In this document: piece after piece, positions 1,590 through 47,117 of the stretch | Layout: each line of letters begins with the position of its first letter | Position numbering within the stretch: the first letter of the stretch is position 1 | DNA from: a virus | Strand: one strand, 5' to 3' | Length of the DNA: 64,000 bases | Virus record (IMG/VR): IMGVR_UViG_3300033149_001989 | Coordinates: 69,761-133,760 of that record | Made by a program: the position numbers and the translations under genes | Notes under the pieces: generated by a model | Database searches by the model: none | Told to the model about the DNA's origin: nothing | What the model saw: the letters and a program-made list of their open reading frames with translations, nothing else

Positions 1590-2123
1590 ATGCACATGGT
1601 AGTTAGAGTCCTAGTATTTGCCAAAGATGCGGAGGAGGCAGTGAAGATAGCAGGAGATGCTCTTTACAGTATGTGTGGAGACGGTATGCCTTTTGATTAC
1701 TACAATTTGTTTGATAACGAGGCTGCTTCTGAAAGGTGGGGTGAACTACCAGTTGTTATGAGGGTGTGCAATAAGATGGGAACAAAAAGATGTGATAACT
1801 GCCCCGACCGCTTCAAATGCTATACAGATAGGCAAGCCTACGACCTGCTCGAAGAAGGGATACAGGCTTCAGAGAGGGAATTTTATCGCTATCTAACCGA
1901 CCTACGTAAATGCTTTTACAAGAAAGACAAAAAGAAACTAATAGATGATGGTCATTTTAGATACCTCTGCTATAAACTTGGTGAATATGGGGGTTCGTCT
2001 ATTTACTTGTATAATGAAGAAGGAGAAGGTATACGTTCTCGAAAAGAATTAGAAGATATTCTGGTGCACGCTGATAGAGAAGATGAAATTCTATATATAA
2101 TTCCAGCAGATGTGCATTATTAA
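1590..2123 (+). CDS. hypothetical protein with internal Cys tag
   Basis: CDNCPDRFKCYT at 1791-1826. Confidence 0.8.
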   Translation: MHMVVRVLVFAKDAEEAVKIAGDALYSMCGDGMPFDYYNLFDNEAASERWGELPVVMRVCNKMGTKRCDNCPDRFKCYTDRQAYDLLEEGIQASEREFYRYLTDLRKCFYKKDKKKLIDDGHFRYLCYKLGEYGGSSIYLYNEEGEGIRSRKELEDILVHADREDEILYIIPADVHY

Positions 2124-2129
2124 AAGGGC

Positions 2130-2158
2130 TTGACTTCACACTTGGCATATTGTATTAT
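2130..2158 (+). promoter_or_regulatory. sigma70-type promoter
   Basis: TTGACT-N17-TATTAT, intergenic, GGCATA in spacer. Confidence 0.75.
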
Positions 2159-2249
2159 AAAGTATTATGTATAATATAATTATGACTGTTTCCATTAGAG
2201 CGAAAGGGTCTACTGGAAATCAAAAATTTTAATTTGAAATTAGAGGAAA

Positions 2250-4295: not shown

Positions 4296-4787
4296 ATGAA
4301 AACCTATAGAGCCTTATGTATTCTTATCTATACGTCCATTGGTTTCCTCTTAGGTTGGTGTCTATGCCCTCAGTTCATAGAACCTGAAGTTGTGCCTGTA
4401 GGTTACTATACAGTAGTCCTAGTTGACCGCCCAGTACCTGAGCCTTACGCCGTACCAGTTGAGAGGGTAATAGTCAAAACCGAATATGTTAGAATACCTC
4501 AGCCATTGCGCAACTTTGAGACTGTAAACGAGTTAAAGGATTTCCTCTCAAGAACCAACGTTGACGAAACCACGATTATAATGAATGACCCGAAGGAGAA
4601 AGCGGACTGCGATGACTATGCTCTACTTCTTATTAAGTATGCCCATAGGGAAGGGTATGCTTTACATTTTCAGATAGACAAAATAGGGCACCGAGGACAC
4701 GCCCTTTGCTGTGCTCTGATTGGGAATGAGGTATACTTCATCGAGCCTTCTACTGATGAATATTGGAAAGTAGCAAACATAGATTAA
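4296..4787 (+). CDS. membrane-anchored papain/transglutaminase-like protein
   Basis: N-terminal hydrophobic segment; DCDDYA...GHA...FIEP Cys-His-Glu pattern. Confidence 0.6.
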   Translation: MKTYRALCILIYTSIGFLLGWCLCPQFIEPEVVPVGYYTVVLVDRPVPEPYAVPVERVIVKTEYVRIPQPLRNFETVNELKDFLSRTNVDETTIIMNDPKEKADCDDYALLLIKYAHREGYALHFQIDKIGHRGHALCCALIGNEVYFIEPSTDEYWKVANID

Positions 4788-4798
4788 CCTTAATAAAA

Positions 4799-5227
4799 AT
4801 GGCCATGGACGAAAAAGAATTGAACCAGAAAATAAAAGACGGGAGGTGTATTTGTGATGCTTGTGCCAGACGGTTTATCTGTTGGACACAAAAAAGAGCG
4901 TTCAGTGAACCAGCTTATCAATCTTTATATGAGGTTCATATCCAAGAGGGTAAAAGTCATGAAGAGGCTATTGCTCAGGTAAGAAGTTTTGTTGAACATG
5001 AATGTTCTACTGCAATACAAATAGCCGAAAGAGGCAAAAGAGCAGAAGTGAAGGATTGTTGGGTTAAAGAACGGAAATTGCATCCCTCATATTCGAAGCA
5101 AGATAGGTGGGTATATGATAAATTATCATCGGTTAGAGACTCAACGAGGTCGGTTGATGAGTTTAAAAAAGAAATAACAGATTTAAAAAAGAAAATGCGG
5201 AAAGCGTTTTATGGAAAAGATGCCTAG
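4799..5227 (+). CDS. hypothetical protein with Cys tag; paralog of 46776-47117
   Basis: CDACARRFICWT at 4853-4888 followed by QKRAFSEPAYQSLYE. Confidence 0.8.
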   Translation: MAMDEKELNQKIKDGRCICDACARRFICWTQKRAFSEPAYQSLYEVHIQEGKSHEEAIAQVRSFVEHECSTAIQIAERGKRAEVKDCWVKERKLHPSYSKQDRWVYDKLSSVRDSTRSVDEFKKEITDLKKKMRKAFYGKDA

Positions 5228-6716
5228 AGCAAACTGTGATGTTTGCACACTAAAGGATTCAGTATTTGTTCCATCCGAGATTAATGACTCAGGGGTTTTA
5301 ATTTTGGTAGAGGCACCAGGATACCACGAGTCTAAAGAAGGTAAGCCGTTAGTGGGGGTTGCTGGTCACGACTTGGAAAGTATTATTAAAGAGTTGGGTT
5401 ATGAAAGAAAAGATGCTAGTTATATCAATGCAGTGACTTGTTTAACAAATCCTAGAGTAAGCATTTATACTTCTAAAGGATGGGTTATATGGAAAAGGTT
5501 GAAAGTTGGGGATTTGGTTCTTACTCATACTGGCAAGTTTAAACGAATTATCTCTAAGATTGAATTTTCGGCTAAAAAAGAAATATTTAAAGTAAAAACA
5601 AAGGCTGGTAATGTTTGGGTATCTAGTGACCATAGATTTAATACGAAAGATGGGTGGAAATTTGTATCTAAACTAAAGATTGGTGACAAAATTCAAGTTT
5701 TTGGCGAAAAGTGTCCTGTCTGCGATAAAATCTTCTATTCAAGAAATAAATTTTGTTCACCTAATTGTGAAAAAATAGATAGAAGTAAACGAATGGCGGA
5801 ACGTAATAAATTAGGGTTATCACTTGAAACGAGAGAAAAAATACGGAAATCTATGCTTACTCAGTATCAATCTGGATTAAGAAATCCACAAGAGATTACT
5901 AAACGTGCCCACGAAGTATATAAACAAGGATGTACTGGTTTAGGTGAAAATGAACTAAAAGGTTTATTATCTTTGTGGAATTATAATTTTATCCACCACG
6001 CAGAAGTTGATAAATGGCAAGTTGACTTTTTGTTAAATAACAAAATTATTGTAGAAATATGGACTGGTGGGTTAAGCGAGTGGCAAGAAATAGAAAGCAA
6101 AAGAAAATATTTAGAACCTTTGGGGTATACAGTATTAGATTATCATTTTTCTCTTGTATATAGGTATCCTGACTTAATACGTTACGAATTAGACAATATA
6201 AATAAAAATCATAATAAGGAATTTAGCTTTGATTTTGTTTCTATTGATAGTATTAAGAAAGGGAGTGGTGTATTTAGACGTAAGTTTTATTCATTAGAAG
6301 TGGAAGATGACGAATCTTTTGTGGCTAGAAATATTGTTCACCATAATTGTCGCCCGACTAAGCAGAGGGATGGGAAAACATATAACCGCACCCCTACCAA
6401 TAAGGAAATCGAGTGGTGTAACGAAAGGATGATTGCTGAAATTGAAAAGTTACATTCACAAATAATTGTTTGTATGGGTAAGATACCTTATGTTGCGTTG
6501 ACTGGTAACAAAGATGCAGTTATGCGTAATATTGTTGGTTCAACCTTTGAATGGCGGGGCAAGTTTGATGTAATTGTTACCTATCATCCAGCGGCGATAA
6601 CCCACTCAGGTGGTAGTGGAACAGAACGTGGAAGAATGATAAGAAATGAAATAAAGAATACCCTCCGCAAGGCTTTTGGAACAAAACCAAAGCCAAAGCA
6701 GTTAAAATTGTTATGA
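5211..6716 (+). CDS. family 4 uracil-DNA glycosylase-like protein, intein-containing
   Basis: CDVC, VEAPG..E...G.PLVG.AG, YINAVT/CRP...NRTP, TYHPAA. Confidence 0.9.
   Translation: MEKMPRANCDVCTLKDSVFVPSEINDSGVLILVEAPGYHESKEGKPLVGVAGHDLESIIKELGYERKDASYINAVTCLTNPRVSIYTSKGWVIWKRLKVGDLVLTHTGKFKRIISKIEFSAKKEIFKVKTKAGNVWVSSDHRFNTKDGWKFVSKLKIGDKIQVFGEKCPVCDKIFYSRNKFCSPNCEKIDRSKRMAERNKLGLSLETREKIRKSMLTQYQSGLRNPQEITKRAHEVYKQGCTGLGENELKGLLSLWNYNFIHHAEVDKWQVDFLLNNKIIVEIWTGGLSEWQEIESKRKYLEPLGYTVLDYHFSLVYRYPDLIRYELDNINKNHNKEFSFDFVSIDSIKKGSGVFRRKFYSLEVEDDESFVARNIVHHNCRPTKQRDGKTYNRTPTNKEIEWCNERMIAEIEKLHSQIIVCMGKIPYVALTGNKDAVMRNIVGSTFEWRGKFDVIVTYHPAAITHSGGSGTERGRMIRNEIKNTLRKAFGTKPKPKQLKLL
5439..6347 (+). 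mobile_element. intein with DUF559/Vsr-like endonuclease
   Basis: Starts CLTNPRVSIYT, block B VSSDHRF, ends YSLEVEDDESFVARNIVHHN followed by Cys+1; insert has VDFLLNNKIIVEI...LGYTVL. Confidence 0.88.
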
Positions 6717-7108
6717 AATCTTTATCTAAAGGAATCGTAAAAAAAGTTAAACCTATTGGGAAAGTTAATCGAAACATTGTAAGACCGATGGACGGAGAAC
6801 GCATTGTCTTTCGGGTAATAAGTAGACACCCAAAATTCTACTATGACCAAGACTATGGGTGCAAACCAGAAAAGGTAGAAGATTGCGATACTTGTCCCTA
6901 TAAATTCGAATGTTTTACCATAGGAAGGCATACCAATTGGGATGGTAGTGACCTTATTCAAATAGAATTTAAGGGTAAGACACTTGGTATTTTCCCAAGA
7001 TACTGGAAGACACCAGAACCAACAACAAACGAACTTGAGGCATATCTTTGGGGGGAGTCTAATGGTAGGCTTCAAATGAGGACTTCTAGGGGTAGTAGTT
7101 GGAGATAA
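6713..7108 (+). CDS. hypothetical protein with Cys tag
   Basis: CDTCPYKFECFT at 6884-6919. Confidence 0.8.
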   Translation: MKSLSKGIVKKVKPIGKVNRNIVRPMDGERIVFRVISRHPKFYYDQDYGCKPEKVEDCDTCPYKFECFTIGRHTNWDGSDLIQIEFKGKTLGIFPRYWKTPEPTTNELEAYLWGESNGRLQMRTSRGSSWR

Positions 7109-8506: not shown

Positions 8507-8947
8507 GTGGGAGTTGGTAATAGGCAAAGATATAATGTGGTTTGTAGTGTTAGCATTTATAAGTCAAGAAGTGAGGAAATTGTTGCAACAAAAGAGGAGG
8601 CTGAGCGGCTTTTGGAGTCCCTACAGGATGAGGTTCGGGCAATGGTTGATATTGAGAAGGAATTGCGGGTACATGTTACCAAGAACAATTACTTGAAAGC
8701 AGGAGATTTTGTAAGAGTAAACCATAATGGGAAACCCTGTATAGCACGTATAATACGGCTACGAGAATACACTTACAGAGGTACAAAATATAACCTAACA
8801 CTTGATGCTGCTGGAACTATATTGAAAGTTAAATGCGGACTTCGTATTCCAAATAATATTGTTCTGGAATGGTTGTGCGATGGTAAATTATCAAATTACT
8901 GTAATGAGTGCGAAAACAGATTTTATTGTATGACGAGTAAAAGATGA
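8507..8947 (+). CDS. hypothetical protein with C-terminal Cys tag
   Basis: CNECENRFYCMT at 8900-8935. Confidence 0.8.
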   Translation: MGVGNRQRYNVVCSVSIYKSRSEEIVATKEEAERLLESLQDEVRAMVDIEKELRVHVTKNNYLKAGDFVRVNHNGKPCIARIIRLREYTYRGTKYNLTLDAAGTILKVKCGLRIPNNIVLEWLCDGKLSNYCNECENRFYCMTSKR

Positions 8948-9324
8948 AAATAAGAAATGGATTTGTAAGTAATAGTAGTAGTTCATCTTTTGTGGTGGCG
9001 TTACATGACCTATCACTTAAACAAGTAGGCATGATACTTAATCATCTTGAATGGGGTAAGAAGCTTGGTATAGAAGGTATAGAATACTGTAAGAGTGGTG
9101 ATACTTGGGACATAGAAGTTAAAAACGGTATTCTTGCAGGTGTAACCAGTATGGATAATTTTGATATGCAGAATTTTTTAGATAAGATTGGTGTCTCTAC
9201 CGCCAAGTTTGGTCACAGTAATGGTACGTGGCTTCTTAAAGAAGATTATCCTAATGAGTGTAATCAAGATTGTGAAAATTACCATATGAGGTTCATTTGC
9301 TTAACAAATGATTGGATAAGATAA
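8944..9324 (+). CDS. MKIRNGFVSNSSSSSF-family phage protein with C-terminal Cys-tag variant
   Basis: Characteristic N-terminus; C-terminal CNQDCENYHMRFICLT. Confidence 0.8.
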   Translation: MKIRNGFVSNSSSSSFVVALHDLSLKQVGMILNHLEWGKKLGIEGIEYCKSGDTWDIEVKNGILAGVTSMDNFDMQNFLDKIGVSTAKFGHSNGTWLLKEDYPNECNQDCENYHMRFICLTNDWIR

Positions 9325-9604: not shown

Positions 9605-9949
9605 GTGAAAGTGAAAGTGGACGAAGTTAAAGTTGTTTTGGAGTGTGGAGAAATTATTCACACTATGAAATGCGATAGTTGCCCACATAGATTTTTGTGT
9701 TGGACACATAAAGGAATAACGTTTTATCCAAATCAAATGGATATAACGGATAATCTTAATATGGGTAGAAGAGTTAATATAACAGTAAGTATTAATAGAG
9801 CACCCTGCATACCACAATCGAAAATGCTCGGTATACCTATGGTAATATATGTTGATAACGTACCTGCGTTTAAGGGAATTGTAACTAGACAATCATATGA
9901 GTTTTCTAAAGACGGGCAGGAAATGTCAATTTATGTCAATTTGTGGTGA
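9605..9949 (+). CDS. hypothetical protein with Cys tag
   Basis: CDSCPHRFLCWT at 9671-9706. Confidence 0.8.
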   Translation: MKVKVDEVKVVLECGEIIHTMKCDSCPHRFLCWTHKGITFYPNQMDITDNLNMGRRVNITVSINRAPCIPQSKMLGIPMVIYVDNVPAFKGIVTRQSYEFSKDGQEMSIYVNLW

Positions 9950-10158
9950 ATCAAATATTGGTCTGTGATACTTGTAAGTATAGGTTTCGTTGTTGGACAG
10001 TAAATGCAAACTATTGCCCGCTGACAAAATTAGAGAGTTTTCGGGGTAAATGGTTTAATGAGGTTGTACCTTATTTAAGACAAATGGAATTGGATGAGAT
10101 AATATTACTAAAAGATATGGGTTTAATAGATATTATTGTGGATGGTAGAAATGCCTAG
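9943..10158 (+). CDS. hypothetical protein with N-terminal Cys tag
   Basis: CDTCKYRFRCWT at 9964-9999. Confidence 0.8.
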   Translation: MVNQILVCDTCKYRFRCWTVNANYCPLTKLESFRGKWFNEVVPYLRQMELDEIILLKDMGLIDIIVDGRNA

Positions 10159-11857: not shown

Positions 11858-12355
11858 GTGAGCGCCGCAAAAATTCATAACTACAAGAATTCTGTAGTCG
11901 TTGCTAACGTAAAGGAGATGCACGAGGCTGGTAAAGTTGTGGTTGCAATCTCTGGTTACTTTGACCCACCTACACCAGCACATATAAGATATATGTGGGA
12001 GGCAAGACAATTAGGAGACAGGCTTGTTGTTATTCTAAACAATGACCACCAGTTATTATTGAAAAGGAAAGGAACGAGACTAGAGGGTAGAGTGAGGTAT
12101 CCATTTGCAGATAGAATGGAAATCATATCTAATCTAAGACCAGTTGACGATGTAGTTGAAAGCGTAGATGATGATGAAACAGTTGCAGAAACTATTAAAC
12201 TGCTATGTCCTGACGTTTTTGCTAAGGGTGGTGATAGAACACTAGAAACATTACCTAAAGCAGAAGTGGATGCTTGTGAAGTAGTGGGTTGTAAAATTGT
12301 ATGTAATGTTGGTGGTAAGAAGACACACTCTAGTTCTTGGTACAATTGGGAATGA
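11858..12355 (+). CDS. cytidylyltransferase-like (TagD/RfaE/RibL family)
   Basis: SGYFDP...HI, LVVILNND, FAKGGDR, HSSS. Confidence 0.88.
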   Translation: MSAAKIHNYKNSVVVANVKEMHEAGKVVVAISGYFDPPTPAHIRYMWEARQLGDRLVVILNNDHQLLLKRKGTRLEGRVRYPFADRMEIISNLRPVDDVVESVDDDETVAETIKLLCPDVFAKGGDRTLETLPKAEVDACEVVGCKIVCNVGGKKTHSSSWYNWE

Positions 12356-12897
12356 AAGTAATAAAACCAAAAAAACCGAAACAATATAATTATGAACTTC
12401 GAAAAAAGCGGTGGCAACAAACAGTTAAAATACACGGTTTTCCAATTACTGCTAGAATAAAACCTACAGCACACAAACAGTATTGTTTTTTATGTCGTAA
12501 ATTAATAGAAAAGGGTGAACCACAGATGTCGGTGGAGGCTGGTCTTTGGTACTCTTGGATAAAAAATGGTAAGTTAGAACATCACTTTGCTTACACTCCA
12601 CTTTACGATTCCCCTGTGTTGGTAAAACCAAGAATTATAAACTATGACGAAGTATCTGGTGTCTCAAAGAAAATATATGTTCAGAGAAAGATTTATTTAC
12701 ATACTGATTGTTACGCTTGCATTATGAACAGAATGTGGATAAAGATGGGGCTTAATTATTTGGTTAATCAAACACTATGTGATTCTTGTAAAAATAGGTT
12801 TAACTGCTATACAGGTAATCTTAATGTAAACCTAACTGATATAACATATCGTAAACCAACCTATATACCGTCAAGACCATGTGAGGTCAAGATGTAA
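12352..12897 (+). CDS. hypothetical protein with Cys tag
   Basis: CFLC...HTDC plus CDSCKNRFNCYT at 12778-12813. Confidence 0.8.
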   Translation: MKVIKPKKPKQYNYELRKKRWQQTVKIHGFPITARIKPTAHKQYCFLCRKLIEKGEPQMSVEAGLWYSWIKNGKLEHHFAYTPLYDSPVLVKPRIINYDEVSGVSKKIYVQRKIYLHTDCYACIMNRMWIKMGLNYLVNQTLCDSCKNRFNCYTGNLNVNLTDITYRKPTYIPSRPCEVKM

Positions 12898-14018: not shown

Positions 14019-14585
14019 GTGGTTAAGAAATATCAAATAATATATGCTGACCCACCTTGGTATTTTCCTGCAAACTACGGAAAGGTTGGAAAATCTAGGC
14101 TAAGTGGATTTGGTGCTAAATTGCGATATAATCTTATGACCGATAAAGAATTACTTGAGCTACCTATAAAAGATTATATTGACGATAATTGTGCTTTGTT
14201 TTTATGGGTAGTCAACTCACGGCTAGATTTTGGTATTGAGGTATTAAAACATTGGGGATTGTCATATAAAACAGTTGCTTTTAATTGGGTTAAGACTGCA
14301 AAGAATAGCGGTATTCCCAATTGTCGCCTGGGTTATTGGACACTGGGTGGTTCCGAGTTGTGTTTATTAGGGATTAAAGGCAAAATGAAGCCAGTTAAAC
14401 ATAATATTAGGCAAGTTGTGTTACACCATCGTATAGGGCACTCAGTTAAACCACCTATATTTAGAGAAAAGATAGTTGAGTTATTTGGAGACAGACCTAG
14501 ACTAGAGCTATTTGCCCGTCAGAAAGTGGAAGGCTGGGACTGTTGGGGCAATGAGGTAGAAAGTGATATTGACCTCAAGTGGTAG
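14019..14585 (+). CDS. MT-A70 family adenine methyltransferase
   Basis: IYADPPW, LFLWV, FNWVK, HSVKP, LELFAR, GWDCWGNE. Confidence 0.92.
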   Translation: MVKKYQIIYADPPWYFPANYGKVGKSRLSGFGAKLRYNLMTDKELLELPIKDYIDDNCALFLWVVNSRLDFGIEVLKHWGLSYKTVAFNWVKTAKNSGIPNCRLGYWTLGGSELCLLGIKGKMKPVKHNIRQVVLHHRIGHSVKPPIFREKIVELFGDRPRLELFARQKVEGWDCWGNEVESDIDLKW

Positions 14586-14611
14586 TATAGTTAAAGTAGG
14601 GGGGTTTAAGT

Positions 14612-15739
14612 ATGAATGATAATAATTTAGCCAAAAAACTATTTGGTAAAGATTACCAAGAATTCACTGAGCAAGACCCATTTAATCCGATGAACAGCCT
14701 ATCAGGATTCATATCTCGCAAATCCAATGAATACTATGGTGCACTACTAATTACTAAAATCAACGGTAAAACTACAGAACAGCTTATTATGGGTACACCC
14801 AAAATGCACTACCCATTTACCACAAGACAAGATGGTTCACGCAAATATGAGTTTCCTATAGCTAAGAACGTAGAGGTTTATGAGAAATTAGATGGTACTA
14901 ATATTCTTACCTACACCTATAAACATAATGGCAAAGATTATATCACATTTAAGACACGTCTCCGCCCCTTCGTAGCATCAGGGCGATTTGGTAATTTCTA
15001 TGAGATGTGGCAAGAGGTTGGTATACCTCATATTGACCAAATTAAAACCTTAATGGAAACCCACAAATGCAATCTTTCATTTGAGATTTATGGGGCTAGA
15101 AATCCTCACTTGATAATGTATCCTAATTCTCTAGATATAGCCCTACTCTTTGGAGTAACGAATACTGGGAGGATAATTAGTCCATCACAGTTTACAACCA
15201 GTTTACCCACCCCTCCGTTACTTGTTACCATTACTGCTGAATATCAAACCCATTATGAAAATATACAAAAACAATTACAGGATGGGCTAAAACAAGAGGA
15301 CGAGGGTTACTATTCAGGGCAAGAAGGTACCGTATGGTATCTAACTACCATTGATGGAAGATGTGTTCAACTAAAATGTAAACCTGAAACAATAGAAGCT
15401 ATCCACTTCTCGGCAGGGTGCGGTATTAATAAGAATGTGCTTCTTGCTACTTGTTGGAATGCCTTTGAGAATGTTGACAAATTGACGGTGGACTTTATCA
15501 AACAACTTTTGCTTGAGGAGTTTCCGCAACACGTTGTAGAAGCTAACCATGCTCTCATTCAGAAGTCCATCGCATTCGTTGAGGCTGAAGCAGAGTTTCG
15601 CCAAAAAGTAATTGAGAAATATAGAGTGTTTGGTAAAAACATCTTGTTGGATAAGGTAAAGGTTATGCGTCATATGTCGCAACTCTTTAACAAGAAAGAT
15701 ATGAGAAAGGTTCATAGCATAATAACCAACTTAGTATAG
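14612..15739 (+). CDS. RNA ligase (ATP-dependent nucleotidyltransferase superfamily)
   Basis: Motif I EKLDGTN, motif III FEIYG, motif IV EGTV, motif V LKCK. Confidence 0.8.
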   Translation: MNDNNLAKKLFGKDYQEFTEQDPFNPMNSLSGFISRKSNEYYGALLITKINGKTTEQLIMGTPKMHYPFTTRQDGSRKYEFPIAKNVEVYEKLDGTNILTYTYKHNGKDYITFKTRLRPFVASGRFGNFYEMWQEVGIPHIDQIKTLMETHKCNLSFEIYGARNPHLIMYPNSLDIALLFGVTNTGRIISPSQFTTSLPTPPLLVTITAEYQTHYENIQKQLQDGLKQEDEGYYSGQEGTVWYLTTIDGRCVQLKCKPETIEAIHFSAGCGINKNVLLATCWNAFENVDKLTVDFIKQLLLEEFPQHVVEANHALIQKSIAFVEAEAEFRQKVIEKYRVFGKNILLDKVKVMRHMSQLFNKKDMRKVHSIITNLV

Positions 15740-15782
15740 ATATTGGGTATATCACTTTAGAAAGGTGGAAGTATGAAAATAA

Positions 15783-17402: not shown

Positions 17403-17825
17403 GTGCAGATATTTGATTGTAATAACTGCCAGTATAGATTTAAATGTTTTACTAGCAAATATAGACCAAAAGTTGTAACACTAAATTGGAAAATATCTTT
17501 TAGGTGTGCAGATTGTAAACACGCTTATTTTAATGGTATAGTTACTGGTAGTTATAGTTGGGACGCTGGTCATGTTGGGTTGTGCCGATTAAGAAATATG
17601 ATAGTTCACAAGAATTCTTGTGCTTGTGACATCTTCTACACAGACAGTAAAGATATTTCACGTCACACTGCTGGCAGGGAAAGGTCAATAAAGCAAGCAC
17701 AAAAGGAGCTTAAGTCAGTATTAAATAGAAAGCACACCAGAACTAAATTACCAAAATATTGTCTAAATACTGAGGGAATTCCAAGGTCTCTACTAGAATA
17801 TTTAAGTAGTGATGATGATTTGTGA
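17403..17825 (+). CDS. Cys-rich protein with N-terminal Cys tag (tandem paralog 1)
   Basis: CNNCQYRFKCFT at 17418-17453. Confidence 0.8.
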   Translation: MQIFDCNNCQYRFKCFTSKYRPKVVTLNWKISFRCADCKHAYFNGIVTGSYSWDAGHVGLCRLRNMIVHKNSCACDIFYTDSKDISRHTAGRERSIKQAQKELKSVLNRKHTRTKLPKYCLNTEGIPRSLLEYLSSDDDL

Positions 17826-18177
17826 TAATTGTAAGTATCGTTATAAATGTTATACTGTACCTGATAAGAGTAGACCGCAGATAGTAAACGGTGTAAGATG
17901 GCAACCAGCACTTAGGTGTGGTATGTGCAGTTACGGTGAATTTAAAAAGAAGAAAAAGAGAGGGGCATGGGGTTGGTTTACAGTTCTTGACCCAGTTGGT
18001 AAGTGTACACTCCACAACTATGTAGTACATCAATATTCTGCTAGTTGTAATGACTTTGTTGGAAAAACATCAATAAGACAGGACAAGGTTAAAAAAGGTT
18101 TAATGCAAGCTCTTAAAAAACGAAAAAATAGATTCAGATTACCTACTTATTGTGTGGACGACAATGAACATAAATAA
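17809..18177 (+). CDS. Cys-rich protein with N-terminal Cys tag (tandem paralog 2)
   Basis: CDNCKYRYKCYT at 17821-17856. Confidence 0.8.
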   Translation: MMMICDNCKYRYKCYTVPDKSRPQIVNGVRWQPALRCGMCSYGEFKKKKKRGAWGWFTVLDPVGKCTLHNYVVHQYSASCNDFVGKTSIRQDKVKKGLMQALKKRKNRFRLPTYCVDDNEHK

Positions 18178-19834: not shown

Positions 19835-19922
19835 TGGCGGAGGGGGAGGGATTCGAACCCTCGGTGGTTTGACCCACGTCAGTTTTCAAGACTGCTCCTT
19901 TAATCCGCTCAGGCACCCCTCC
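19835..19922 (-). tRNA. tRNA-Ser(TGA)
   Basis: Cloverleaf, loop CTTGAAA, long variable arm, G73, CCA. Confidence 0.95.
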
Positions 19923-29070: not shown

Positions 29071-29148
29071 TGGTAGGGGTGACAGGAGTCGAACCTGCAT
29101 TAATACTTCTTTGTAGGAGAAGCGTTTCACCAATTAAACTACACCCCT
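29071..29148 (-). tRNA. tRNA-Val(TAC), C33
   Basis: CTTCT-CCTACAA-AGAAG, A73, CCA. Confidence 0.88.
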
Positions 29149-36653: not shown

Positions 36654-36694
36654 ATAAACCTCTTTTGTCGGTTCATAATTACCATTATTATACG

Positions 36695-36766
36695 AGCGTC
36701 CTCTGGGGGTCAAACCCAGTACTCAACTTTGGAAAAGTTGCGTGTAATCATCAACACTTAGGACGC
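36695..36766 (-). tRNA. tRNA-Gly(TCC)
   Basis: CAACT-TTTCCAA-AGTTG, U73; degenerate D and T loops; no CCA. Confidence 0.78.
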
Positions 36767-37478: not shown

Positions 37479-37706
37479 TTATCGGGCAAAACATCTGAAC
37501 CTAAACTCACAGTCATTACAGTAATCTCCTAACTTTCTAGAACATAAATACAACGCAACAAAATCGAGAACTTTACCGCAACCAGGACAAGTAAACTTAT
37601 CTCCACTTAATAACAAACTAAGCAACTGTGTAACACTATGCCAGGATACAACATAACCACACGATTGGCATTTAACAAACGATTTAACAGCATTGTCAAT
37701 ATCCAT
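37479..37706 (-). CDS. zinc-ribbon protein with C-terminal Cys tag
   Basis: CQSC..CPGC; ends CNDCEFRFRCFAR*. Confidence 0.8.
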   Translation of the reverse strand: MDIDNAVKSFVKCQSCGYVVSWHSVTQLLSLLLSGDKFTCPGCGKVLDFVALYLCSRKLGDYCNDCEFRFRCFAR

Positions 37707-37900
37707 TATTTTCTCCAACAATCCTGGCACAAATATCTTGCTGGTTTTATCTTCTTTCCTCCATTCCTTATTCTCCTCAAAGTAACACCAGACTTGCCGC
37801 ACTCAGCACAGCAAAGAGTCCGTTGAAGATTAATATTCAACGTAATACTTGCAGGGTCAACATCCGATTTTCTAACTTGGTCGAGTTTTTCTATTGGCAT
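37706..37900 (-). CDS. small zinc-finger protein
   Basis: CAECG...CQDC. Confidence 0.6.
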   Translation of the reverse strand: MPIEKLDQVRKSDVDPASITLNINLQRTLCCAECGKSGVTLRRIRNGGKKIKPARYLCQDCWRK

Positions 37901-40307: not shown

Positions 40308-41045
40308 TTACCATCTTCCAATCTTCCGTTCCTTACCTAAACATTCCTCCAAAAAGTAACATCTTGCACAGCCCCTACCAATATTTCTAACAAACACATT
40401 TGTTTTAATCTTACGCTCAATCTTATTTATCTCACTTTCTAGAATAGCAAAATCTTCATCACATCGCTTTGTTTCCATATCCCTCATTGTTCCTAAGTGA
40501 CGCAAAATTAAACCATTCTCTTCTTTACCAAATAAATGTCTATATGCATAACTATACAAAGTAAACTGTAAGTCCAAATCAAGTTCAAGAACCGTTGGTT
40601 TGGCACCAGTTTTATAATCAATAACATTGCCAGCAGCATCTATTTGGTCAAGAACACCAATAACTATGTGCCGACCAATATGAACTGGATTGCTTCTACC
40701 AAAAAAGAACTCAGTAACAATTGGTGCAGGGTGTTTTTTAACATACTTATTATAATATTTCCTTAATAATTCCTGCCCTTGTTTGAACTTTTTTAAGTAT
40801 TCACCTTCACTAGTATAAACAATGTCTTTACTCGAAGTAAGAGTTACCCACTCACTTTTAAAGACACTAGCCCAATCATCCGCTTTGGTCAAATTGTTGT
40901 CATAACCAATCTTTATTGCTCTATGAACAGCAGTACCATAAACTGACGCTGCCCCCTCTTTGATAGGAATCCTTTTAACATATCTTAAATAGTAACAATA
41001 TTCGCACTGCATAAAGTTACTGAGCATCGTATAACTAATTTCCAC
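40308..41045 (-). CDS. Cas4/RecB-like PD-(D/E)XK exonuclease
   Basis: ISYT..F.QC, GTAVH, GVLD, IDYKTG, QFTLY, CARCYFLEEC. Confidence 0.9.
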   Translation of the reverse strand: MEISYTMLSNFMQCEYCYYLRYVKRIPIKEGAASVYGTAVHRAIKIGYDNNLTKADDWASVFKSEWVTLTSSKDIVYTSEGEYLKKFKQGQELLRKYYNKYVKKHPAPIVTEFFFGRSNPVHIGRHIVIGVLDQIDAAGNVIDYKTGAKPTVLELDLDLQFTLYSYAYRHLFGKEENGLILRHLGTMRDMETKRCDEDFAILESEINKIERKIKTNVFVRNIGRGCARCYFLEECLGKERKIGRW

Positions 41046-41569: not shown

Positions 41570-42586
41570 TTAAGTGTTTTCATTTATCCTCTCCCGCTCT
41601 TTTAATTCTTTATCAATTTCTATACTAACAGTCGATTGAAGTGCCTTATCGTACAAGTCCTTTCTTAATTTTTCATCTTCTCTAAGAGCCTGAGCAAAAT
41701 TTGCCAACCCTTGAAATTTTAATTCACCATACTGATACCACGCACCAGCCTTATTAACAATCCCAGCCCTCTCACAAACACCAACAATATCACGCTCAAT
41801 GTCTATCCCCTTGCCGTGTTCCATAAATAAGGAAGTAGTACTATAAGGAACCACCGACCACTCTTTGCCCTTGTTTATCGTAACTTTTGATTCTACACTA
41901 CCAGTAGCCTTATTCTCAGAACCCCACATAGATATTTTAACATCAGTATAATACTGTAATGCCATTCCACCAGCAGGTGCTAAACCAGAAGAAAATGCAC
42001 CTATTTTTGAACGCAATTGATTTACCGCTACAAAGATTGCTTCCTTTCGTCTAATTGGTTGTTGTAATTGCTCTACAAAATAACCTGTCGTCCTTGCTTT
42101 AGCACCTACATTAGGACCTTTATCTAAATTATCGGTCGGTTGCTTTTTTTCAATATTTGCTCTTGGCACCGCAGCAGTTATTGAATCCATTACAATAACT
42201 TTAAGATTATGGTTTCGTATACCCTCGATACAAACATTAAATACCTCTTCCGCAAAATCTCCAGAGAAGTGATTAAAAAACTTAGACTCAACATCCACTC
42301 CACACGCTTGAGCGTACAACCTATCGTAACCTTCTAATCCAACAAACAAAGTTGGTAACTCTAATTTAACAGCCTGAGCAACCATATGGTATGCAAGTGT
42401 TGTTTTGCCCGCTTTCTCAGGTCCATATATCTGAGTAATTGTCCCACCTGGAATACCACCACCAAGGCACCTATCCAATGACGGAACACCGATGGGAAGC
42501 CGCCAAGTAGCCCTCCCTTCTGGAACGTATATTCTCTCTGTTCTTTTTAAGACAGCCTCTATCAATTCCCTAATATCTTTACCCAT
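41570..42586 (-). CDS. recA: RecA/UvsX recombinase
   Basis: LDRCLGGGIPGG, YGPEKAGKTT, VMDS, NQLRSKIG, GGMAL, KAGAWY. Confidence 0.93.
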   Translation of the reverse strand: MGKDIRELIEAVLKRTERIYVPEGRATWRLPIGVPSLDRCLGGGIPGGTITQIYGPEKAGKTTLAYHMVAQAVKLELPTLFVGLEGYDRLYAQACGVDVESKFFNHFSGDFAEEVFNVCIEGIRNHNLKVIVMDSITAAVPRANIEKKQPTDNLDKGPNVGAKARTTGYFVEQLQQPIRRKEAIFVAVNQLRSKIGAFSSGLAPAGGMALQYYTDVKISMWGSENKATGSVESKVTINKGKEWSVVPYSTTSLFMEHGKGIDIERDIVGVCERAGIVNKAGAWYQYGELKFQGLANFAQALREDEKLRKDLYDKALQSTVSIEIDKELKERERINENT

Positions 42587-43166
42587 TATTTACCTCTTCT
42601 TCAGTAATAACATCTAATTGAACACCAGCCAACTCAAACAATTTCTCCGACAGCGGAAAGTTATAACCCCTTTTGTCTGGATTATCACCATCCTTAATTT
42701 TGTCAACAGTTCTAATATATTCCCTGCTTCCACTTTTACCAAGACAAACGACACGTTTTATTCCTGCTTGGATAATTTCCTTAGCACAATTGATACAAGG
42801 AGTGCCACAATAACAATATAAGATTGCCCCGTCCGTTGGTATACCCATTTTTGCAGCCTGCATTATTGGATTTATCTCTGCATGAATGGATACACAATAT
42901 TCCATTCCACAACCGCTTTCAAATCCCATTCTCTTTCTAGGACATTTATCCGATACAAAATGGTCTGTATAATTACCACAATCATCCCTATAATCACAAT
43001 GTGGTACACCTGATGGAGGTCCATTACACCCAGTTGCTATCACGTACTTATCCTTTACCAAAACAGAACCAATTTTTCTTGAGCGGCACTTACTTCTTTG
43101 CATCCACAATTTTGCCTCTTTCATAAAATGAATATCCCACACTTTTTGTGGTGTATACTTATCCAT
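42579..43166 (-). CDS. dCMP deaminase
   Basis: NGPPSG, HAEINP, PCINC. Confidence 0.92.
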   Translation of the reverse strand: MDKYTPQKVWDIHFMKEAKLWMQRSKCRSRKIGSVLVKDKYVIATGCNGPPSGVPHCDYRDDCGNYTDHFVSDKCPRKRMGFESGCGMEYCVSIHAEINPIMQAAKMGIPTDGAILYCYCGTPCINCAKEIIQAGIKRVVCLGKSGSREYIRTVDKIKDGDNPDKRGYNFPLSEKLFELAGVQLDVITEEEVNNG

Positions 43167-43713
43167 TTTTCCTCTCCTTATTTCTAGCAATATTACGTAT
43201 CATTTCAGCCAACAAAGAAAAGTTGTCCCTAACAAATCCATCCGTATTTTTACGGGCATACTTCCAAGGTATAGAAAAGAACACATTATCGGTGTTTACT
43301 GAGTTTTTAATGTTACGCTGGAGTTTAGCAAATTGTTTTATATAGTCAAATGTCGCACAAAAAAATGAATCTATATCCTTATTTGTTTTCAGATATATAT
43401 CAAATTGCTTACTCCTAACCTTTCTTGCTGGAATACTTAATCCTCTAGGAAACCTTTCTTCTGATGGTAATTTCCCCTTCCAATCAGTAATTGTTAATGC
43501 CGTTTCAAATTCAATATACAACAAATCGACGCCATTTTTACTAACAACGGCATCATGAGTAAATTTTTTATTGTTATGCATCCTAAAAGTGAACTCTGGC
43601 AGTAACTCCTTTAGCTTCTTTAATATCTTCAACTCATAAGGCGATGCTTTACGTGCCAAATCATCTTTGTCCTTATTCCAAGGTTTGGGTTTAAAGATGT
43701 CTTTCTTATTCAT
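43159..43713 (-). CDS. putative PD-(D/E)XK endonuclease
   Basis: HDAVV...YIEFET spacing; directly downstream of a Dam-like MTase. Confidence 0.45.
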   Translation of the reverse strand: MNKKDIFKPKPWNKDKDDLARKASPYELKILKKLKELLPEFTFRMHNNKKFTHDAVVSKNGVDLLYIEFETALTITDWKGKLPSEERFPRGLSIPARKVRSKQFDIYLKTNKDIDSFFCATFDYIKQFAKLQRNIKNSVNTDNVFFSIPWKYARKNTDGFVRDNFSLLAEMIRNIARNKERKNG

Positions 43714-44518
43714 TAAAAACAACAACCTCTTCCACCTTCTTTATTTTGCCTTTACTGTACGAACTCTTAGCAGTATGAATAATTGGTATCTTCTCAACTA
43801 TATCATTACGAAAAACAGTATCAATATACTCATTATTATCCATTGATACACACCAATGTGGAAAATTTGACAAAACTATTCGTAAATCAATTAAATTATC
43901 AACAGTATAACCACAATTATACCAAGATTGACCATAAGCTAAATATGGTGGGTCGGCGTAAACAAAATCTGCTGAAGTTCTCTTTAATAAATTTACTGCG
44001 TCATCCTTACTAACAGTAACAATACGACCACGAAGAATATTATATGCTAAATCTATCTTCATTATTATATTGGCCGAGTTCCAATAACAACCAACCTTCC
44101 AATTACCTTGTTGAGACACACCACCAATTGGTAACCGTTGCGTAATATAACCATTATAAGATGTTTTATTCAAGAAAATCATTTTGAATGCCCAGTCTAA
44201 ACCTGTTTCGGGAACAGTATCAAAAATATGATTATATAAGTCTATATTTGGTTTTGTATCTTTTATTTTATCATACAAATTACTCATATCTTGTGGAGTC
44301 GCCTTATAGAAAAACTCCCAAAAATTGTAGACTAATTCATTATTGTCATTAATGTAAAATGACCACTTTGGAAAATCTTTAGCCATATTGATTAGCGAAC
44401 CACCACCACCAACGAAAGCATCAATGGCCACCCAATTGCTATCGCAATTATAGCGGTTACCAATTAGACCATTAATCTTCTTCATTAAACGTAATTTACC
44501 ACCTGGATAACGAAACAC
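43706..44518 (-). CDS. Dam/D12-class DNA adenine methyltransferase
   Basis: RYPGGK, DAFVGGGG, FLNKTSYNG, YADPPY. Confidence 0.92.
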   Translation of the reverse strand: MFRYPGGKLRLMKKINGLIGNRYNCDSNWVAIDAFVGGGGSLINMAKDFPKWSFYINDNNELVYNFWEFFYKATPQDMSNLYDKIKDTKPNIDLYNHIFDTVPETGLDWAFKMIFLNKTSYNGYITQRLPIGGVSQQGNWKVGCYWNSANIIMKIDLAYNILRGRIVTVSKDDAVNLLKRTSADFVYADPPYLAYGQSWYNCGYTVDNLIDLRIVLSNFPHWCVSMDNNEYIDTVFRNDIVEKIPIIHTAKSSYSKGKIKKVEEVVVFNE

Positions 44519-44847
44519 TACTTTACTCCCTCATAAATTACCTCTATTCTTGAACTAGCGCAAGCAAACCTAAATTCACAGTTTTCACACTTTTCTTCCA
44601 AGCCAGGTAATTCTTCATTAGTAACTTTACATAGGTATCGTGGTATATCGCTTTTACATTCTGGACACCATTCTATATCTGGTTTGGTAGAATCGTAACG
44701 ATTAAAACTGGTTCCACTAAAAGTTATAAGACCACTTAGTGATATTCCAATTTCCCCATCCTTCATATACTTATAAATTACCGCCCCTCTACAATTCCTA
44801 CAAATAGCCACCACACAAATAGTATTATCCTTAGTCTCCGTTACCAC
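44518..44847 (-). CDS. zinc-ribbon protein with Cys tag
   Basis: CRNC..CPEC; CENCEFRFACAS at 44554-44589. Confidence 0.8.
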   Translation of the reverse strand: MVTETKDNTICVVAICRNCRGAVIYKYMKDGEIGISLSGLITFSGTSFNRYDSTKPDIEWCPECKSDIPRYLCKVTNEELPGLEEKCENCEFRFACASSRIEVIYEGVK

Positions 44848-46795
44848 TTAGCCCCCATCCTGGTGGAATCAACAAAAGTTGTTGTCCCTCGATGCCATCA
44901 CCAACTCCATCATCTTTCCACCAATTATCCCTAATTTTAACATCAACAATAATTGGTACTTTAGTTAATAACTTGCGACCCGCTACAATCATCTTGCTCC
45001 TAACAAGATGGGCTACTTCGATTGCATGTTCTTCTGGTACTTCAACAACCAATTCATCATGAACACAATTAACCATAGTTGCCCCAAAATTCCTCAAAGG
45101 ATTATATAGTAAAACCATAGCAATCTTTAGCATATCACCATCAGTACCAAGAATAGGATGATTTCTACCTACCCGTTCATAAAAGGAGCGCAACCTCTTG
45201 TAGTTCTTATCGCTCGTAGCAAGAGAGGGAAACCAACGATAACGACCACCAAGCGTCCTTGCCCAACCACGTTCCAGAGCCAATTTAGATTGTTCATCAA
45301 GCCAGTCCATAAGGACTTTATAAGTCTCACGATACTTGGTCATCAAATCTTCAGCCTCTGTAGAACTGCAACCAAGTCTATCCTTTAGCGAGTTTAAATA
45401 CATCCCATAAATAATGCCAAAATTGATGATTTTAGCTGCCTTTCGCTGCGAAGGTGTAACCTGGTCTATAGGAACTTTAAACATCAGTGAGGCAGTTGCC
45501 TTGTGAATGTCCCCACTGGGGTCAGAGAAGGCAAATAACATCACGGGGTCACCGCTCATTTCAGCCGCAATTCTTAAATGCAACTGTGAATAATCAGCAA
45601 TAACAAATTTCTTTCCCTTTTCTGGAACGAAACAAGACCTTAACAAAAAACCCTCTTCACCCTTCTTCTGGATATTCTGAAGATTAGGGTCATAACTAGA
45701 AAATCTGCCAGCATCAGTACCCATCTGGTCGAACCTGGCATGTATCCTACCATCCCACTTGATGTGTTCTATTAAATTATCACCAAACGTCTTTTCAACC
45801 TGTTTTAGACCACGATATTTTATAATATTTGCCAAAATTTCACGTTTATCATCGTCATACAAACTCATCGCATATTTAAGAGTATTAACATTGGTGACAC
45901 CCTTACGTGTCTTTTTATTAGCATCATATAAATTTATACCAACTTGAGAACATGCCCACGCTACCTGTTGCCAACTATCAAGATTAAGAACAGGTGGTGG
46001 TTTGAACTTCGCCGTATTAGCATAAGGTGTACCATCTTTCTTCAATCTTATTGGTTTAGGTGGTGGAGCAGGTAGGTTAGGTAAACTATTTCTTAGTTTA
46101 GTACCAACTTTAAAAATCTTCTTCCGAGTACTTTGTATCCCTTTACTCCACAAATCAGCATCAAGTTTAAACCCAGTAAGTTCCATTTCACCCACGGCTT
46201 GAGTAAGCAAAAACTCAATTTCAGCAATCGGAATTAAACCATACTGTTTAAGACAGTTCCACTGTCGTATCCTAATTTCAGGCAACACTAAAACATCATT
46301 AGCAGCATACTTAATTTGTTCCTCAGTAAATGGGGCATCATATGGGTGCTCAAAGAATGTCTCTACAGTACTCTTGTCCAACTTAAGTTCTAAATATCGA
46401 AAAGCCAAATCCTCTAAAGAATTACCCTTTTTCATACCAGCGGTTAGTAAATTTTCCGCAATTTTAGTATCAAAAACGGTCTGCAAGGATAATCCACGCT
46501 TTGCTTTCAGCATCTTATAATCATATACTGCGTTCTGAAGAGTTTTAATCCATCTATTACTCTCAACTAACTCTCTTAGCAAGGTAACATCTGTTTTTCT
46601 GGCATCAATCACGTAAGCTCTGTCCCCAATACCAACCTGAACTAAAAGTAGTTTAACATTCGGACTGAGCGGGTCTAAACCACCACTATTCTCAGTATCG
46701 AGAGATACGTGCGTATAATCTCTGGCATCATCTAAGACCAAAGACAAATCTTTATTATTTTCAATAAATTCACACTTACCTAGAGCAACATCCAT
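44831..46795 (-). CDS. polA: family A DNA polymerase with 3'-5' exonuclease
   Basis: SLDTE, YAANDV, GRFSSYDPNLQNI, ADYSQLHLR, RKAAKIINFGIIYG, VHDE; start at ATG 46795. Confidence 0.96.
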   Translation of the reverse strand: MDVALGKCEFIENNKDLSLVLDDARDYTHVSLDTENSGGLDPLSPNVKLLLVQVGIGDRAYVIDARKTDVTLLRELVESNRWIKTLQNAVYDYKMLKAKRGLSLQTVFDTKIAENLLTAGMKKGNSLEDLAFRYLELKLDKSTVETFFEHPYDAPFTEEQIKYAANDVLVLPEIRIRQWNCLKQYGLIPIAEIEFLLTQAVGEMELTGFKLDADLWSKGIQSTRKKIFKVGTKLRNSLPNLPAPPPKPIRLKKDGTPYANTAKFKPPPVLNLDSWQQVAWACSQVGINLYDANKKTRKGVTNVNTLKYAMSLYDDDKREILANIIKYRGLKQVEKTFGDNLIEHIKWDGRIHARFDQMGTDAGRFSSYDPNLQNIQKKGEEGFLLRSCFVPEKGKKFVIADYSQLHLRIAAEMSGDPVMLFAFSDPSGDIHKATASLMFKVPIDQVTPSQRKAAKIINFGIIYGMYLNSLKDRLGCSSTEAEDLMTKYRETYKVLMDWLDEQSKLALERGWARTLGGRYRWFPSLATSDKNYKRLRSFYERVGRNHPILGTDGDMLKIAMVLLYNPLRNFGATMVNCVHDELVVEVPEEHAIEVAHLVRSKMIVAGRKLLTKVPIIVDVKIRDNWWKDDGVGDGIEGQQLLLIPPGWGLSGNGD

Positions 46796-47117
46796 GCCAA
46801 CTAACTTCCTCTCCCGTGCGCATTGTATATGATACATTAATACTATTAGTACTATCACTATATAATGGGGAGATTGTAATATTAGGTAATACACCAACCA
46901 CATCACCCATAGGTATTCTACCCATTCTAAACTTAAGCTCCGCCACTACTTCGTCAAGAGCCCCTTCCTTTGTTCTACCCTTTCCGATTAGTGCCTCATA
47001 CAATCCTTGATACAACGGGTCAGAGAAGATTCTCTCTTGAGTAAAACACTGAAAACGCAACGGACACTTTGAGCACAAACACTCCTCGTCTAACGCTTTA
47101 GTTTTATGCTTATCCAC
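46776..47117 (-). CDS. hypothetical protein with Cys tag; paralog of 4799-5227
   Basis: CSKCPLRFQCFT at 47040-47075 followed by QERIFSDPLYQGLYE. Confidence 0.8.
   Translation of the reverse strand: MDKHKTKALDEECLCSKCPLRFQCFTQERIFSDPLYQGLYEALIGKGRTKEGALDEVVAELKFRMGRIPMGDVVGVLPNITISPLYSDSTNSINVSYTMRTGEEVSWHGCCSR

Follow-up and report, generated by a model that had tools for sequence, protein, structure and literature searches.

The second half of the IMG/VR virus record IMGVR_UViG_3300033149_001989 raises the question of why one short cysteine-rich peptide recurs in many proteins of a single phage genome, and what this peptide may do there. The window, i.e., the whole stretch of 64,000 nucleotides that was analysed (positions 69,761 to 133,760), belongs to a complete 133,760-bp record with direct terminal repeats and a G+C content of 38%. 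From the letters of this window alone, the original prediction had described a portable three-cysteine peptide, C-x2-C-x2-R-F-x-C-[WYF]-T (hereafter called the tag, and the proteins bearing it carriers), on about 19 mostly unrelated proteins, and had interpreted it as a possible metal or iron-sulfur (Fe-S) docking or sorting device. A six-frame scan of the window with the pattern C..C..[RK][FY].C.. yielded 18 matches, each within an open frame of the strand that is coding at that place, and reproduced the coordinates and peptides of all 18 strict copies; a degenerate variant at position 9259 was likewise located (Table 1). The observation itself was confirmed and proved to be larger than had been reported, and the interpretation offered with it was partly supported.

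In the whole genome, pattern scanning and a search with a hidden Markov model (HMM) identified 32 strict and two degenerate copies of the tag, and a pattern formulated on the DNA level matched 30 times, with no match for the reversed control. The strict motif was absent from 20 genomes simulated with a second-order Markov model (mean 0, maximum 0), which excludes chance. The bare spacing C..C.....C was found 47 times, as compared to a mean of 6.45 and a maximum of 9 in the same simulations, and CxxC pairs occurred 400 times genome-wide versus a simulated mean of 224. When the genome was ranked with a tag HMM built solely from copies in other genomes, its 32 strict copies were the top 32 matches (13.1–28.9 bits, with the best score for the copy at 9671), followed by the two degenerate copies, namely the 9259 variant (8.8 bits) and CEGCPQVFNCWT at genome positions 57138–57857 (8.0 bits). 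All copies are located between genome positions 40,971 and 116,880; none was found in the first 40 kb, which form a block of long open reading frames (ORFs) on the minus strand, or beyond 116.9 kb. The minus-strand block is taken here, without annotation, as the structural block of the genome. A virion-packaging route, one of the functions initially considered for the tag, finds no support in the copy locations, which are all outside this presumed structural block.

The copies are conserved as peptides. Both TGT and TGC are used at every cysteine (Cys) position and six arginine codons are in use. The mean nucleotide identity of the genome's 32 copies, which is 57%, and the third-position identity at conserved residues, which is 51%, speak against a DNA-level repeat or mobile element. 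Across 174 pairs of homologs drawn from different genomes, 993 of 1044 cells at the six conserved positions had the identical residue, but the codon was the same in only 52% of these. Furthermore, of 392 alignments between homologs that span the motif, 385 retain the tag, and four of the seven without retention involve a low-complexity locus. Judged from these alignments, purifying selection acts on the peptide, as had been proposed on the basis of the varying codons.

A set of 279 distinct carriers, in which the triad is present by construction of the scan, was used for clustering as well as for the consensus and the Cys counts. With the motif masked, these carriers fell into 178 BLAST clusters, 129 of them singletons. 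The 32 carriers of the genome studied here contained just two BLAST-related pairs, the same two that had been named as the only exceptions to otherwise unrelated flanking sequences. How the tag is placed in a known fold can be seen in ORF 1590-2123, for which the database-precomputed family is PF25958. A full HMMER search gave 573 representatives of the family of this ORF, and among the best 150 of these the tag was present in seven (query included), whereas 143 had a short loop instead; one homolog (P0032) lacked exactly the tag segment in the alignment. By alignment, the tag is an insertion within this widespread phage family. Terminal fusion is seen in a uracil-DNA glycosylase (UDG; PF03167, E = 3.8e-20), whose C-terminal extension holds the tag in three related contigs (L016, L074, and L014), whereas the UDG of this genome (window 5211–6716, plus strand) ends without a C-terminal tag. 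The view that the tag is absent from recognisable enzymes therefore holds within the window but not in the relatives. The tag was also found at the C-terminus of bL12 C-terminal-like domains (PF00542). Other carriers have the look of a SWIM-type finger by eye only, with no match in Pfam, or show weak kinase-like matches, and there are local tandem families, such as five paralogs in L005 and L018. With 178 clusters and cases of both insertion and terminal fusion, the description of a portable module on mostly unrelated proteins was borne out.

The extended consensus of the 279 carriers is [ED]-K-C-[DEN]-x-C-[KPE]-x-R-F-[KR]-C-[WYF]-T-x-R. The tag had been regarded as a three-Cys element that leaves one ligand site open, and this part of the prediction did not stand. 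A further Cys is situated at most 14 residues upstream of the triad in 194 of the 279 carriers, as compared to 31 for the same span downstream, and an upstream Cys at any distance was found in 249. At least four Cys occur in 273 carriers, including all 19 in the window, and exactly three in only six. The Cys counts per protein peak at four, the commonest number (98 carriers), and again at eight (39) and 12 (9). These counts show that the site consists of four cysteines, C-x(1-14)-C-x2-C-x2-R-F-x-C-[WYF]-T, and not of three. The upstream Cys is most commonly spaced 3, 4, 7, or 9 residues from the triad, and the position of this fourth ligand is highly variable, ranging from one to more than 70 residues upstream and sometimes lying downstream. 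The Arg, Phe, aromatic, and Thr positions are at or near 90% conserved across the 178 otherwise unrelated clusters. The residue after the second Cys is most often Lys, Pro, or Glu, with no dominant Gly. The tag was internal in 167 carriers, C-terminal in 91, and N-terminal in 21, these classes being approximate as the gene start was taken as the first Met of each open frame.

An IMG/VR scan for the Trp variant of the tag gave at least 118 stretches. Among the matches listed were ten contigs with many copies, one of which (L018) has 22 copies in 12.9 kb, and an eleventh many-copy contig was obtained by a search with the DNA polymerase. Whole records were counted by using an Arg-only DNA pattern, with the reversed pattern as control; this gave 30 copies in G000, 62 in G001, 48 in G002, 40 in G003, 48 in G004, and 30 in G005, and the control matched once in G005 and never in the other five. 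Five related genomes of 134–153 kb hold 30–62 copies each. The polymerases of tag-bearing genomes are 49–59% identical to that of the window, and those of the next relatives found at most 28%; no tags were present in the 9–21 kb around the polymerase genes of the latter. The closest cultured polymerase relatives are Pseudanabaena phages (28% identity), and PA-SR01 has no copy in 137 kb. A DNA search of a phage collection and a single-protein locus search with the polymerase gave no match. The D/CWT variant was searched in one genome for each of 185,579 prokaryotic species and yielded six single stretches, four of which give the motif only in odd frames of 28–78 codons and two of which never translate to the motif. 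These six are read as chance, although the variant fits only about one tenth of the copies and single cellular copies may thus be missed. A profile search of 5.8 billion proteins retrieved 31 proteins at E ≤ 1, none with an informative name (two are called “hypothetical protein,” one “ribosomal protein S27E” (JGI), and the rest are unnamed). The searches show the spread of the motif to be restricted to one uncultured lineage of 134–153 kb phages, and such reuse of a module was not seen in the other phages searched.

The best lead to the nature of the site came from eight IMG/VR loci with single hits (L015, L017, L019, L041, L056, L072, L080, and L099), which encode proteins of 284–299 amino acids (aa) whose C-terminal triad, C-x-F-C-x-[FY]-R-F-x-C-W-T, fits the tag. 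The two of these that were scanned against PHROGs, L015 and L041, matched phrog_1990, “Cas4-domain exonuclease” (E = 6e-35 and 4.6e-31, respectively); PDDEXK_1 gave weak matches for L015 and L041 and none for L056 and L080. Among the best 120 of 4109 relatives of these exonucleases, 117 have C-x-F-C-x-[YF]-R-[FY]-x-C-W, with Arg in 111 and Lys in six, Phe in 85 and Tyr in 16, and Trp in all 117. In a profile–profile comparison the tag aligned on the exonuclease triad over 19 columns with a probability of 92.7% (E = 4.3e-7). According to excerpts of the Cas4 study, one N-terminal Cys and the C-terminal C-x2-C-x5-C bind a [4Fe-4S] or [2Fe-2S] cluster as an “iron staple,” and the C-terminal triad of Pcal_0546 is Cys200, Cys203, and Cys209 (PMC4176176). 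Excerpts of published work name the same spacing for Dna2 and SPASM enzymes.

We infer, with a probability of roughly 0.6, that the tag is an intramolecular four-Cys metal clasp, most likely of Fe-S type, which has been spread through the proteins of one phage lineage; metal binding, the identity of the metal, and an internal clasp rather than docking all belong to this inference. The module of about 20–25 residues, C-x(1-14)-C-[DEN]-x-C-x2-R-F-x-C-[WYF]-T-x-R, would be self-contained, and its four thiolates would bind one metal centre within the same protein. This centre would most likely be an Fe-S cluster of the C-Xn-C-X2-C-X5-C iron-staple type, as in Cas4/AddB nucleases. The conserved Arg and the two aromatic residues may pack on the site and neutralise it, the Thr may start the next helix, and the clasp as a whole would hold a small or extended polypeptide together. 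Loop insertion and terminal fusion would have copied the module into 30–62 cytoplasmic, non-virion proteins per genome. An Fe-S cluster is favoured because C..C..RF.CW is common to an Fe-S nuclease family and because the position of the fourth ligand is very variable. Since the same non-ligand residues are conserved in the exonuclease triad, the needs of a metal site would explain their conservation in the tag more simply than docking, which suggests that the Arg, the Phe, and the aromatic residue serve the metal site and not a binding partner. On the strength of the four cysteines and the likeness to the Cas4-domain exonuclease triad, the metal or Fe-S role that had been proposed would remain the most reasonable reading.

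An AlphaFold2 model of ORF 1590-2123, based on seven sequences, had a mean predicted local distance difference test score (pLDDT) of 70.7. In this model the first Cys is at the end of a strand, C-x2-C is in a loop, and R-F-x-C-Y forms a short strand, and a long helix begins right after the Thr of the tag. Foldseek found no match for it in the PDB at E ≤ 0.001. A 42-residue module modelled alone (148 sequences) had a different secondary structure and was not used for conclusions, and scores for ORF 4763-5227 in the ESM Atlas were at most 0.81 and uninformative.

Searches of the curated libraries did not assign the tag to any family either. When the 19 window carriers were searched against Pfam at E ≤ 1, none of its models passed the cut-off over the tag, and PHROGs gave no match for eight carriers. 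When 150 windows containing only the tag were compared to Pfam and NCBIfam, any one model matched at most five of them, in all cases below the cut-off. In a PDB sequence-profile search the best E value was 1.2 for the tag, and no match was found for the exonuclease family. A literature search revealed, within the terms used, no description of the motif or of such a spread. The opinion that this is not a described system, with the tag covered by no Pfam or NCBIfam family, thus held.

Several observations weigh against an Fe-S clasp. The pLDDT of the tag itself was only 55–63 within the ORF and 67 when the module was modelled by itself. Since the exonuclease seeds had been retrieved with the tag's own DNA pattern, the resemblance is partly selected for, though it is family-wide. 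None of the 19 carriers has a PDDEXK, Cas4, or other nuclease domain (E ≤ 1). The exonuclease family phrog_1990 was not found in the six genomes, a weak result, as the control in one search found nothing anywhere, and the PDDEXK_1 nuclease of the lineage itself has another triad, C..C[YF]F.EHCL, in all six genomes. The sub-threshold matches of the 150 tag windows are split between Fe-S models (EndIII_4Fe-2S, three windows; Whib, two; RseC, one; Cas4, one; and SPASM types) and zinc-finger or transposase-end models (DDE_Tnp_1_6, five; GATA, one; and C2H2 types). Searches for IscA/HesB, NifU, and glutaredoxin gave no match in the five genomes searched. In the 9259 variant, moreover, a Cys is exchanged for Tyr next to a His, and Cys/His exchange is more typical of zinc sites.

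These points make zinc a serious alternative, clearly less probable than an Fe-S cluster though quite possible. The same four-Cys module would then be a structural zinc knuckle, a Zn(Cys)4 site that stabilises small proteins and has no redox or iron dependence. Zinc has to be taken seriously because CxxC pairs abound in the carriers and throughout the genome, because zinc-finger models match weakly, because of the change in the 9259 variant, and because no Fe-S assembly genes were found in the five phage genomes searched. Many carriers have ordinary CxxC...CxxC pairs with sub-threshold zinc-ribbon matches, the weak matches of the tag windows include zinc-finger models and the C-terminal end of DDE_Tnp_1_6/IS1182 transposases, and C-x2-C-x2-R-F resembles GATA and C2H2 knuckles in the PDB profile search, albeit at E > 1. 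The strand-loop-strand predicted around the site would also suit a zinc knuckle. On the other hand, the sole family found to have the same extended signature, C..C..RF.CW, is the Cas4-domain exonuclease with its established Fe-S ligand set, and a fourth-ligand position as variable as that of the tag is typical of Fe-S sites but not of compact zinc knuckles. In addition, zinc knuckles usually read CxxCG, and the Lys, Pro, or Glu after the second Cys of the tag, where Gly is not among the top residues, speaks weakly in favour of Fe-S.

That the motif docks or sorts many proteins onto a single partner, be it a scaffold, a protease, a chaperone, or a sensor, with the metal only shaping the epitope, appears unlikely. 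The near 90% conservation of Arg, Phe, the aromatic residue, and Thr across unrelated clusters would fit a common binding surface, as would the occurrence of the tag in 30–62 proteins per genome and the terminal, presumably exposed location of 91 of the 279 tags. A MoxR-type AAA gene and a DUF2201/VWA gene lie immediately upstream of five tagged genes in a row, and MoxR-type AAA/VWA pairs have been linked to metalloprotein maturation. However, Arg, Phe or Tyr, and Trp are equally conserved in the exonuclease triad, for which a common partner is not expected, and the tag is also found inside folded domains as a loop insertion. Even less probable is a single ancient paralog family that has diverged beyond recognition and of which the motif is the inherited core. 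Small phage proteins diverge fast, the ancestry of the 129 singleton clusters is untraceable, and local tandem families such as those with five paralogs do exist; yet the tag is found in a loop within one family in which 143 of the best 150 members lack it, on the UDG of some members of the clade and not of this genome, and on bL12 C-terminal-like domains, and its position in the protein varies from N-terminal to internal to C-terminal. Hardly credible is a metal-free role, in which the cysteines would serve as a thiol/disulfide redox switch or be recognised as a substrate by a modifying enzyme. The tags are confined to cytoplasmic, non-virion proteins and CxxC pairs are classical redox motifs, but a tetrahedral site accounts better than a disulfide pair for the dedicated fourth Cys and for Cys counts that go by multiples of four, and a search of the five genomes, which did not extend to radical SAM and thioredoxin families, found no glutaredoxin.

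If the four-Cys clasp indeed holds an Fe-S cluster, a large share of the early and replication proteins of these phages would rely on the Fe-S assembly and the redox state of the host; the demand on host Fe-S assembly would be very large, and infection should depend on iron and oxygen. A tentative extension, in which we place rather little confidence, is that oxygen- or iron-sensitive Fe-S tags gate a quarter or so of the non-structural proteome together, or plug into one host hub, the latter in analogy to WhiB proteins that plug into a sigma factor. In that case 30–62 proteins, including replisome neighbours, UDG, and bL12-like proteins, might be switched on, stabilised, or destroyed together, and the Fe-S supply and redox state of the host would control the infection programme via one cofactor module of about 20 residues. 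With either metal, a phage lineage would appear able to spread one tiny cofactor module through its proteome, similar to the eukaryotic zinc fingers. The tag also provides a handle on hundreds of “hypothetical” proteins of a deep-branching, uncultured phage lineage, and a portable Fe-S or Zn module of about 20 residues with hundreds of variants could be useful for the design of minimal metalloproteins.

Table 1. Copies of the tag and the PDDEXK_1 nuclease in the window (positions from the first letter of the window; aa, amino acids).
Feature	Position	Strand	Context and remarks
Tag CDNCPDRFKCYT	1791–1826	+	Internal, ORF 1590-2123 (177 aa); fourth Cys 7 residues upstream
Tag CDACARRFICWT	4853–4888	+	Near N-terminus, ORF 4763-5227; upstream Cys 1 residue away (C-x-C); paralog of ORF 46776-47117, in conserved seven-member cluster
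Tag CDTCPYKFECFT	6884–6919	+	Internal, ORF 6713-7108 (131 aa); fourth Cys 7 residues upstream
Tag CNECENRFYCMT	8900–8935	+	C-terminus, ORF 8507-8947 (146 aa); fourth Cys 7 residues upstream
Degenerate tag CNQDCENYHMRFICLT	9259–9306	+	C-terminus, ORF 8944-9324; second triad Cys replaced by Tyr, His adjoining; ortholog of canonical C-x3-CDDCHMRFICYT in L016
Tag CDSCPHRFLCWT	9671–9706	+	ORF 9605-9949 (114 aa); fourth Cys 8 residues upstream
Tag CDTCKYRFRCWT	9964–9999	+	N-terminus, ORF 9943-10158 (71 aa)
Tag CDSCKNRFNCYT	12778–12813	+	Near C-terminus, ORF 12337-12897 (186 aa; 8 Cys including two CxxC pairs)
Tag CNNCQYRFKCFT	17418–17453	+	N-terminus, ORF 17403-17825 (140 aa); no upstream Cys, further Cys downstream; paralog of ORF 17809-18177
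Tag CDNCKYRYKCYT	17821–17856	+	N-terminus, ORF 17809-18177 (122 aa)
Tag CKYCEHKFMCLT	20762–20797	-	C-terminus, ORF 20750-21100 (116 aa, 9 Cys), within tRNA array
Tag CECCPIRFSCYT	23642–23677	-	44-codon open frame between tRNA-Gly and tRNA-His; HMM 17.1 bits
Tag CENCIHRFECFT	26455–26490	-	ORF 26170-26553 (127 aa); orthologs in L002 and L093 retain tag
Tag CNQCPLRFACWT, then Arg and stop	26782–26817	-	C-terminus, ORF 26776-27033 (85 aa, 8 Cys); sub-threshold zinc-ribbon matches upstream of tag
Tag CEKCKNRYECWT, then Arg and stop	27024–27059	-	C-terminus, ORF 27018-27233 (71 aa)
Tag CDLCKIRFNCWA	27948–27983	-	ORF 27660-28058 (132 aa); fourth Cys 3 residues upstream
Tag CNDCEFRFRCFA, then Arg and stop	37485–37520	-	C-terminus, ORF 37479-37802 (107 aa, 9 Cys); fourth Cys 7 residues upstream
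PDDEXK_1 (Cas4/RecB-like) nuclease	40308–41045	-	E = 6.9e-23; one N-terminal Cys, classical C-terminal triad C-A-R-C-Y-F-L-E-E-C
Tag CENCEFRFACAS	44554–44589	-	Near C-terminus, ORF 44518-44847 (109 aa), directly downstream of DNA polymerase gene
Tag CSKCPLRFQCFT	47040–47075	-	Near N-terminus, ORF 46776-47117, directly upstream of DNA polymerase gene; upstream Cys 1 residue away

Among the individual copies, that at 23642 is immediately preceded by an in-frame TAG, and no ATG, GTG, or TTG lies ahead of the motif. An ATG is present one frame off, adjoining four consecutive G, so that the copy may be either a remnant that has undergone a frameshift or the product of an error in the assembly. It is located within an array of transfer RNA (tRNA) genes. 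This array comprises 26 tRNA genes (window 19835–29148 and 36694–36766, minus strand), of which all but one lie within 9.3 kb, and six small ORFs bearing the tag are interleaved with them. The array includes tRNA-Cys(GCA), tRNA-Arg(TCT), tRNA-Thr(TGT), and tRNA-Trp, and in the tag Arg and Thr are most often encoded by AGA and ACA. The flanking of the DNA polymerase gene by tagged genes was also found in all four clade members examined. The longest polymerase ORF (44831–46906, minus strand) overlaps the tagged ORF upstream by about 130 bases; as relatives align only from polymerase residue 24–47 onward, the true start of the polymerase is probably further downstream.

Two intein or intein-like insertions were noticed. 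An intein-like segment of about 300 residues, with a weak HNH match in PHROGs, splits the UDG of the window; it starts at a Cys after ...INAVT and ends with ...VHHN before CRPT. In a related contig, a small tagged ortholog with a SWIM-like appearance (C-x-C...C-x-H, by eye; L076:8766–10196, minus strand) contains an insertion of about 345 residues that matches LAGLIDADG_3 (E = 3.7e-8) and Intein_splicing (E = 1.5e-4). Going by these matches, the insertion is an intein in a tagged protein of about 125 residues.

An end-joining pair, made up of an ATP-dependent DNA ligase and a homolog of Ku (PF02735, E = 6.4e-38), is further encoded at genome positions 55592–56506 and 58163–58972 (L122:17592–18506 and L123:1163–1972). 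The MoxR-type AAA and DUF2201 metallopeptidase/VWA-like genes occupy genome positions 60263–62969 (L123:3263–5969) and the tagged run downstream of them 62971–65250. A small protein at genome positions 49526–50203 (L122:11526–12203) matches PI3_PI4_kinase (E = 6.8e-9) and, more weakly, HipA_C. The window regions 14019–17177 and 41570–50649 contain MT-A70 and Dam-type methyltransferases, an RNA ligase-like protein, a tRNA nucleotidyltransferase, RecA, ThyX, and a metallophosphoesterase, none of which is tagged.

Four-Cys metal sites and the CX2CX5C spacing as such are well known. The signature of the tag, its independence from any host domain, and its spread over 30–62 proteins per genome were not found described in the literature or in the curated family libraries searched, and the known systems that come closest share different parts of its anatomy. 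WhiB-like proteins (PF02467) have the [4Fe-4S] pattern C-Xn-C-X2-C-X5-C, and their familiar consensus has, like the tag, a frequent Pro after the second Cys and an Arg three residues after it. However, PF02467 matched none of the 19 carriers at E ≤ 1 and only two of the 150 tag windows (best E = 0.014, below the cut-off), and the WhiB fold is a helical bundle, whereas a strand-loop-strand is predicted with low confidence for the tag. The iron-sulfur cluster loop of endonuclease III and MutY (PF10576) reads C-X6-C-X2-C-X5-C and resembles the tag as a compact four-Cys site that is often at the extreme C-terminus and surrounded by basic residues. The x6 spacing occurs in only 15 of the 279 tags, PF10576 matched three of the 150 windows (best E = 0.049), and no HhH-GPD domain was found. 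SPASM domains have CX2CX5CX3C according to excerpts of their description, whereas the frequency of a Cys three residues after the triad is 0.00 in the 279 tag carriers. Zinc knuckles and ribbons, in their familiar patterns, are likewise small portable modules with an aromatic residue four positions after CxxC; they have two CxxC (or CxxC and HxxH) knuckles, whereas the tag has one CxxC with the third ligand after five residues, none of the zinc-finger models reaches its cut-off, and the zinc-ribbon matches of the carriers are outside the tag and sub-threshold. In RseC, the motif CX5CX2CX5C gives rise to an oxygen-sensitive cluster with a [4Fe-4S]-like spectrum, as stated in excerpts of the study (PMC11729352). 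The short four-Cys motif of RseC/RnfF resembles the tag in that the last three Cys form the conserved core, but RseC is a membrane protein of one family, its model PF04246 matched one of the 150 tag windows (E = 0.088), and the x5 spacing is found in 11 of the 279 tags. The Cas4/AddB iron staple has C-x2-C-x5-C plus a fourth Cys in common with the tag, and the phrog_1990 exonucleases also share Arg and Phe or Tyr at the third and fourth positions after the second Cys and Trp after the last one. In Cas4/AddB a PD-(D/E)XK domain surrounds the cluster, whereas the tag carriers are without such a domain; the fourth Cys of Cas4 is far N-terminal and that of the tag usually within 14 residues; and a Thr follows the aromatic residue in 90% of the tags as compared to five of 117 exonucleases. 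Finally, the exonuclease triad occurs on one protein per genome, whereas the tag is found on about 30–60 different ones.

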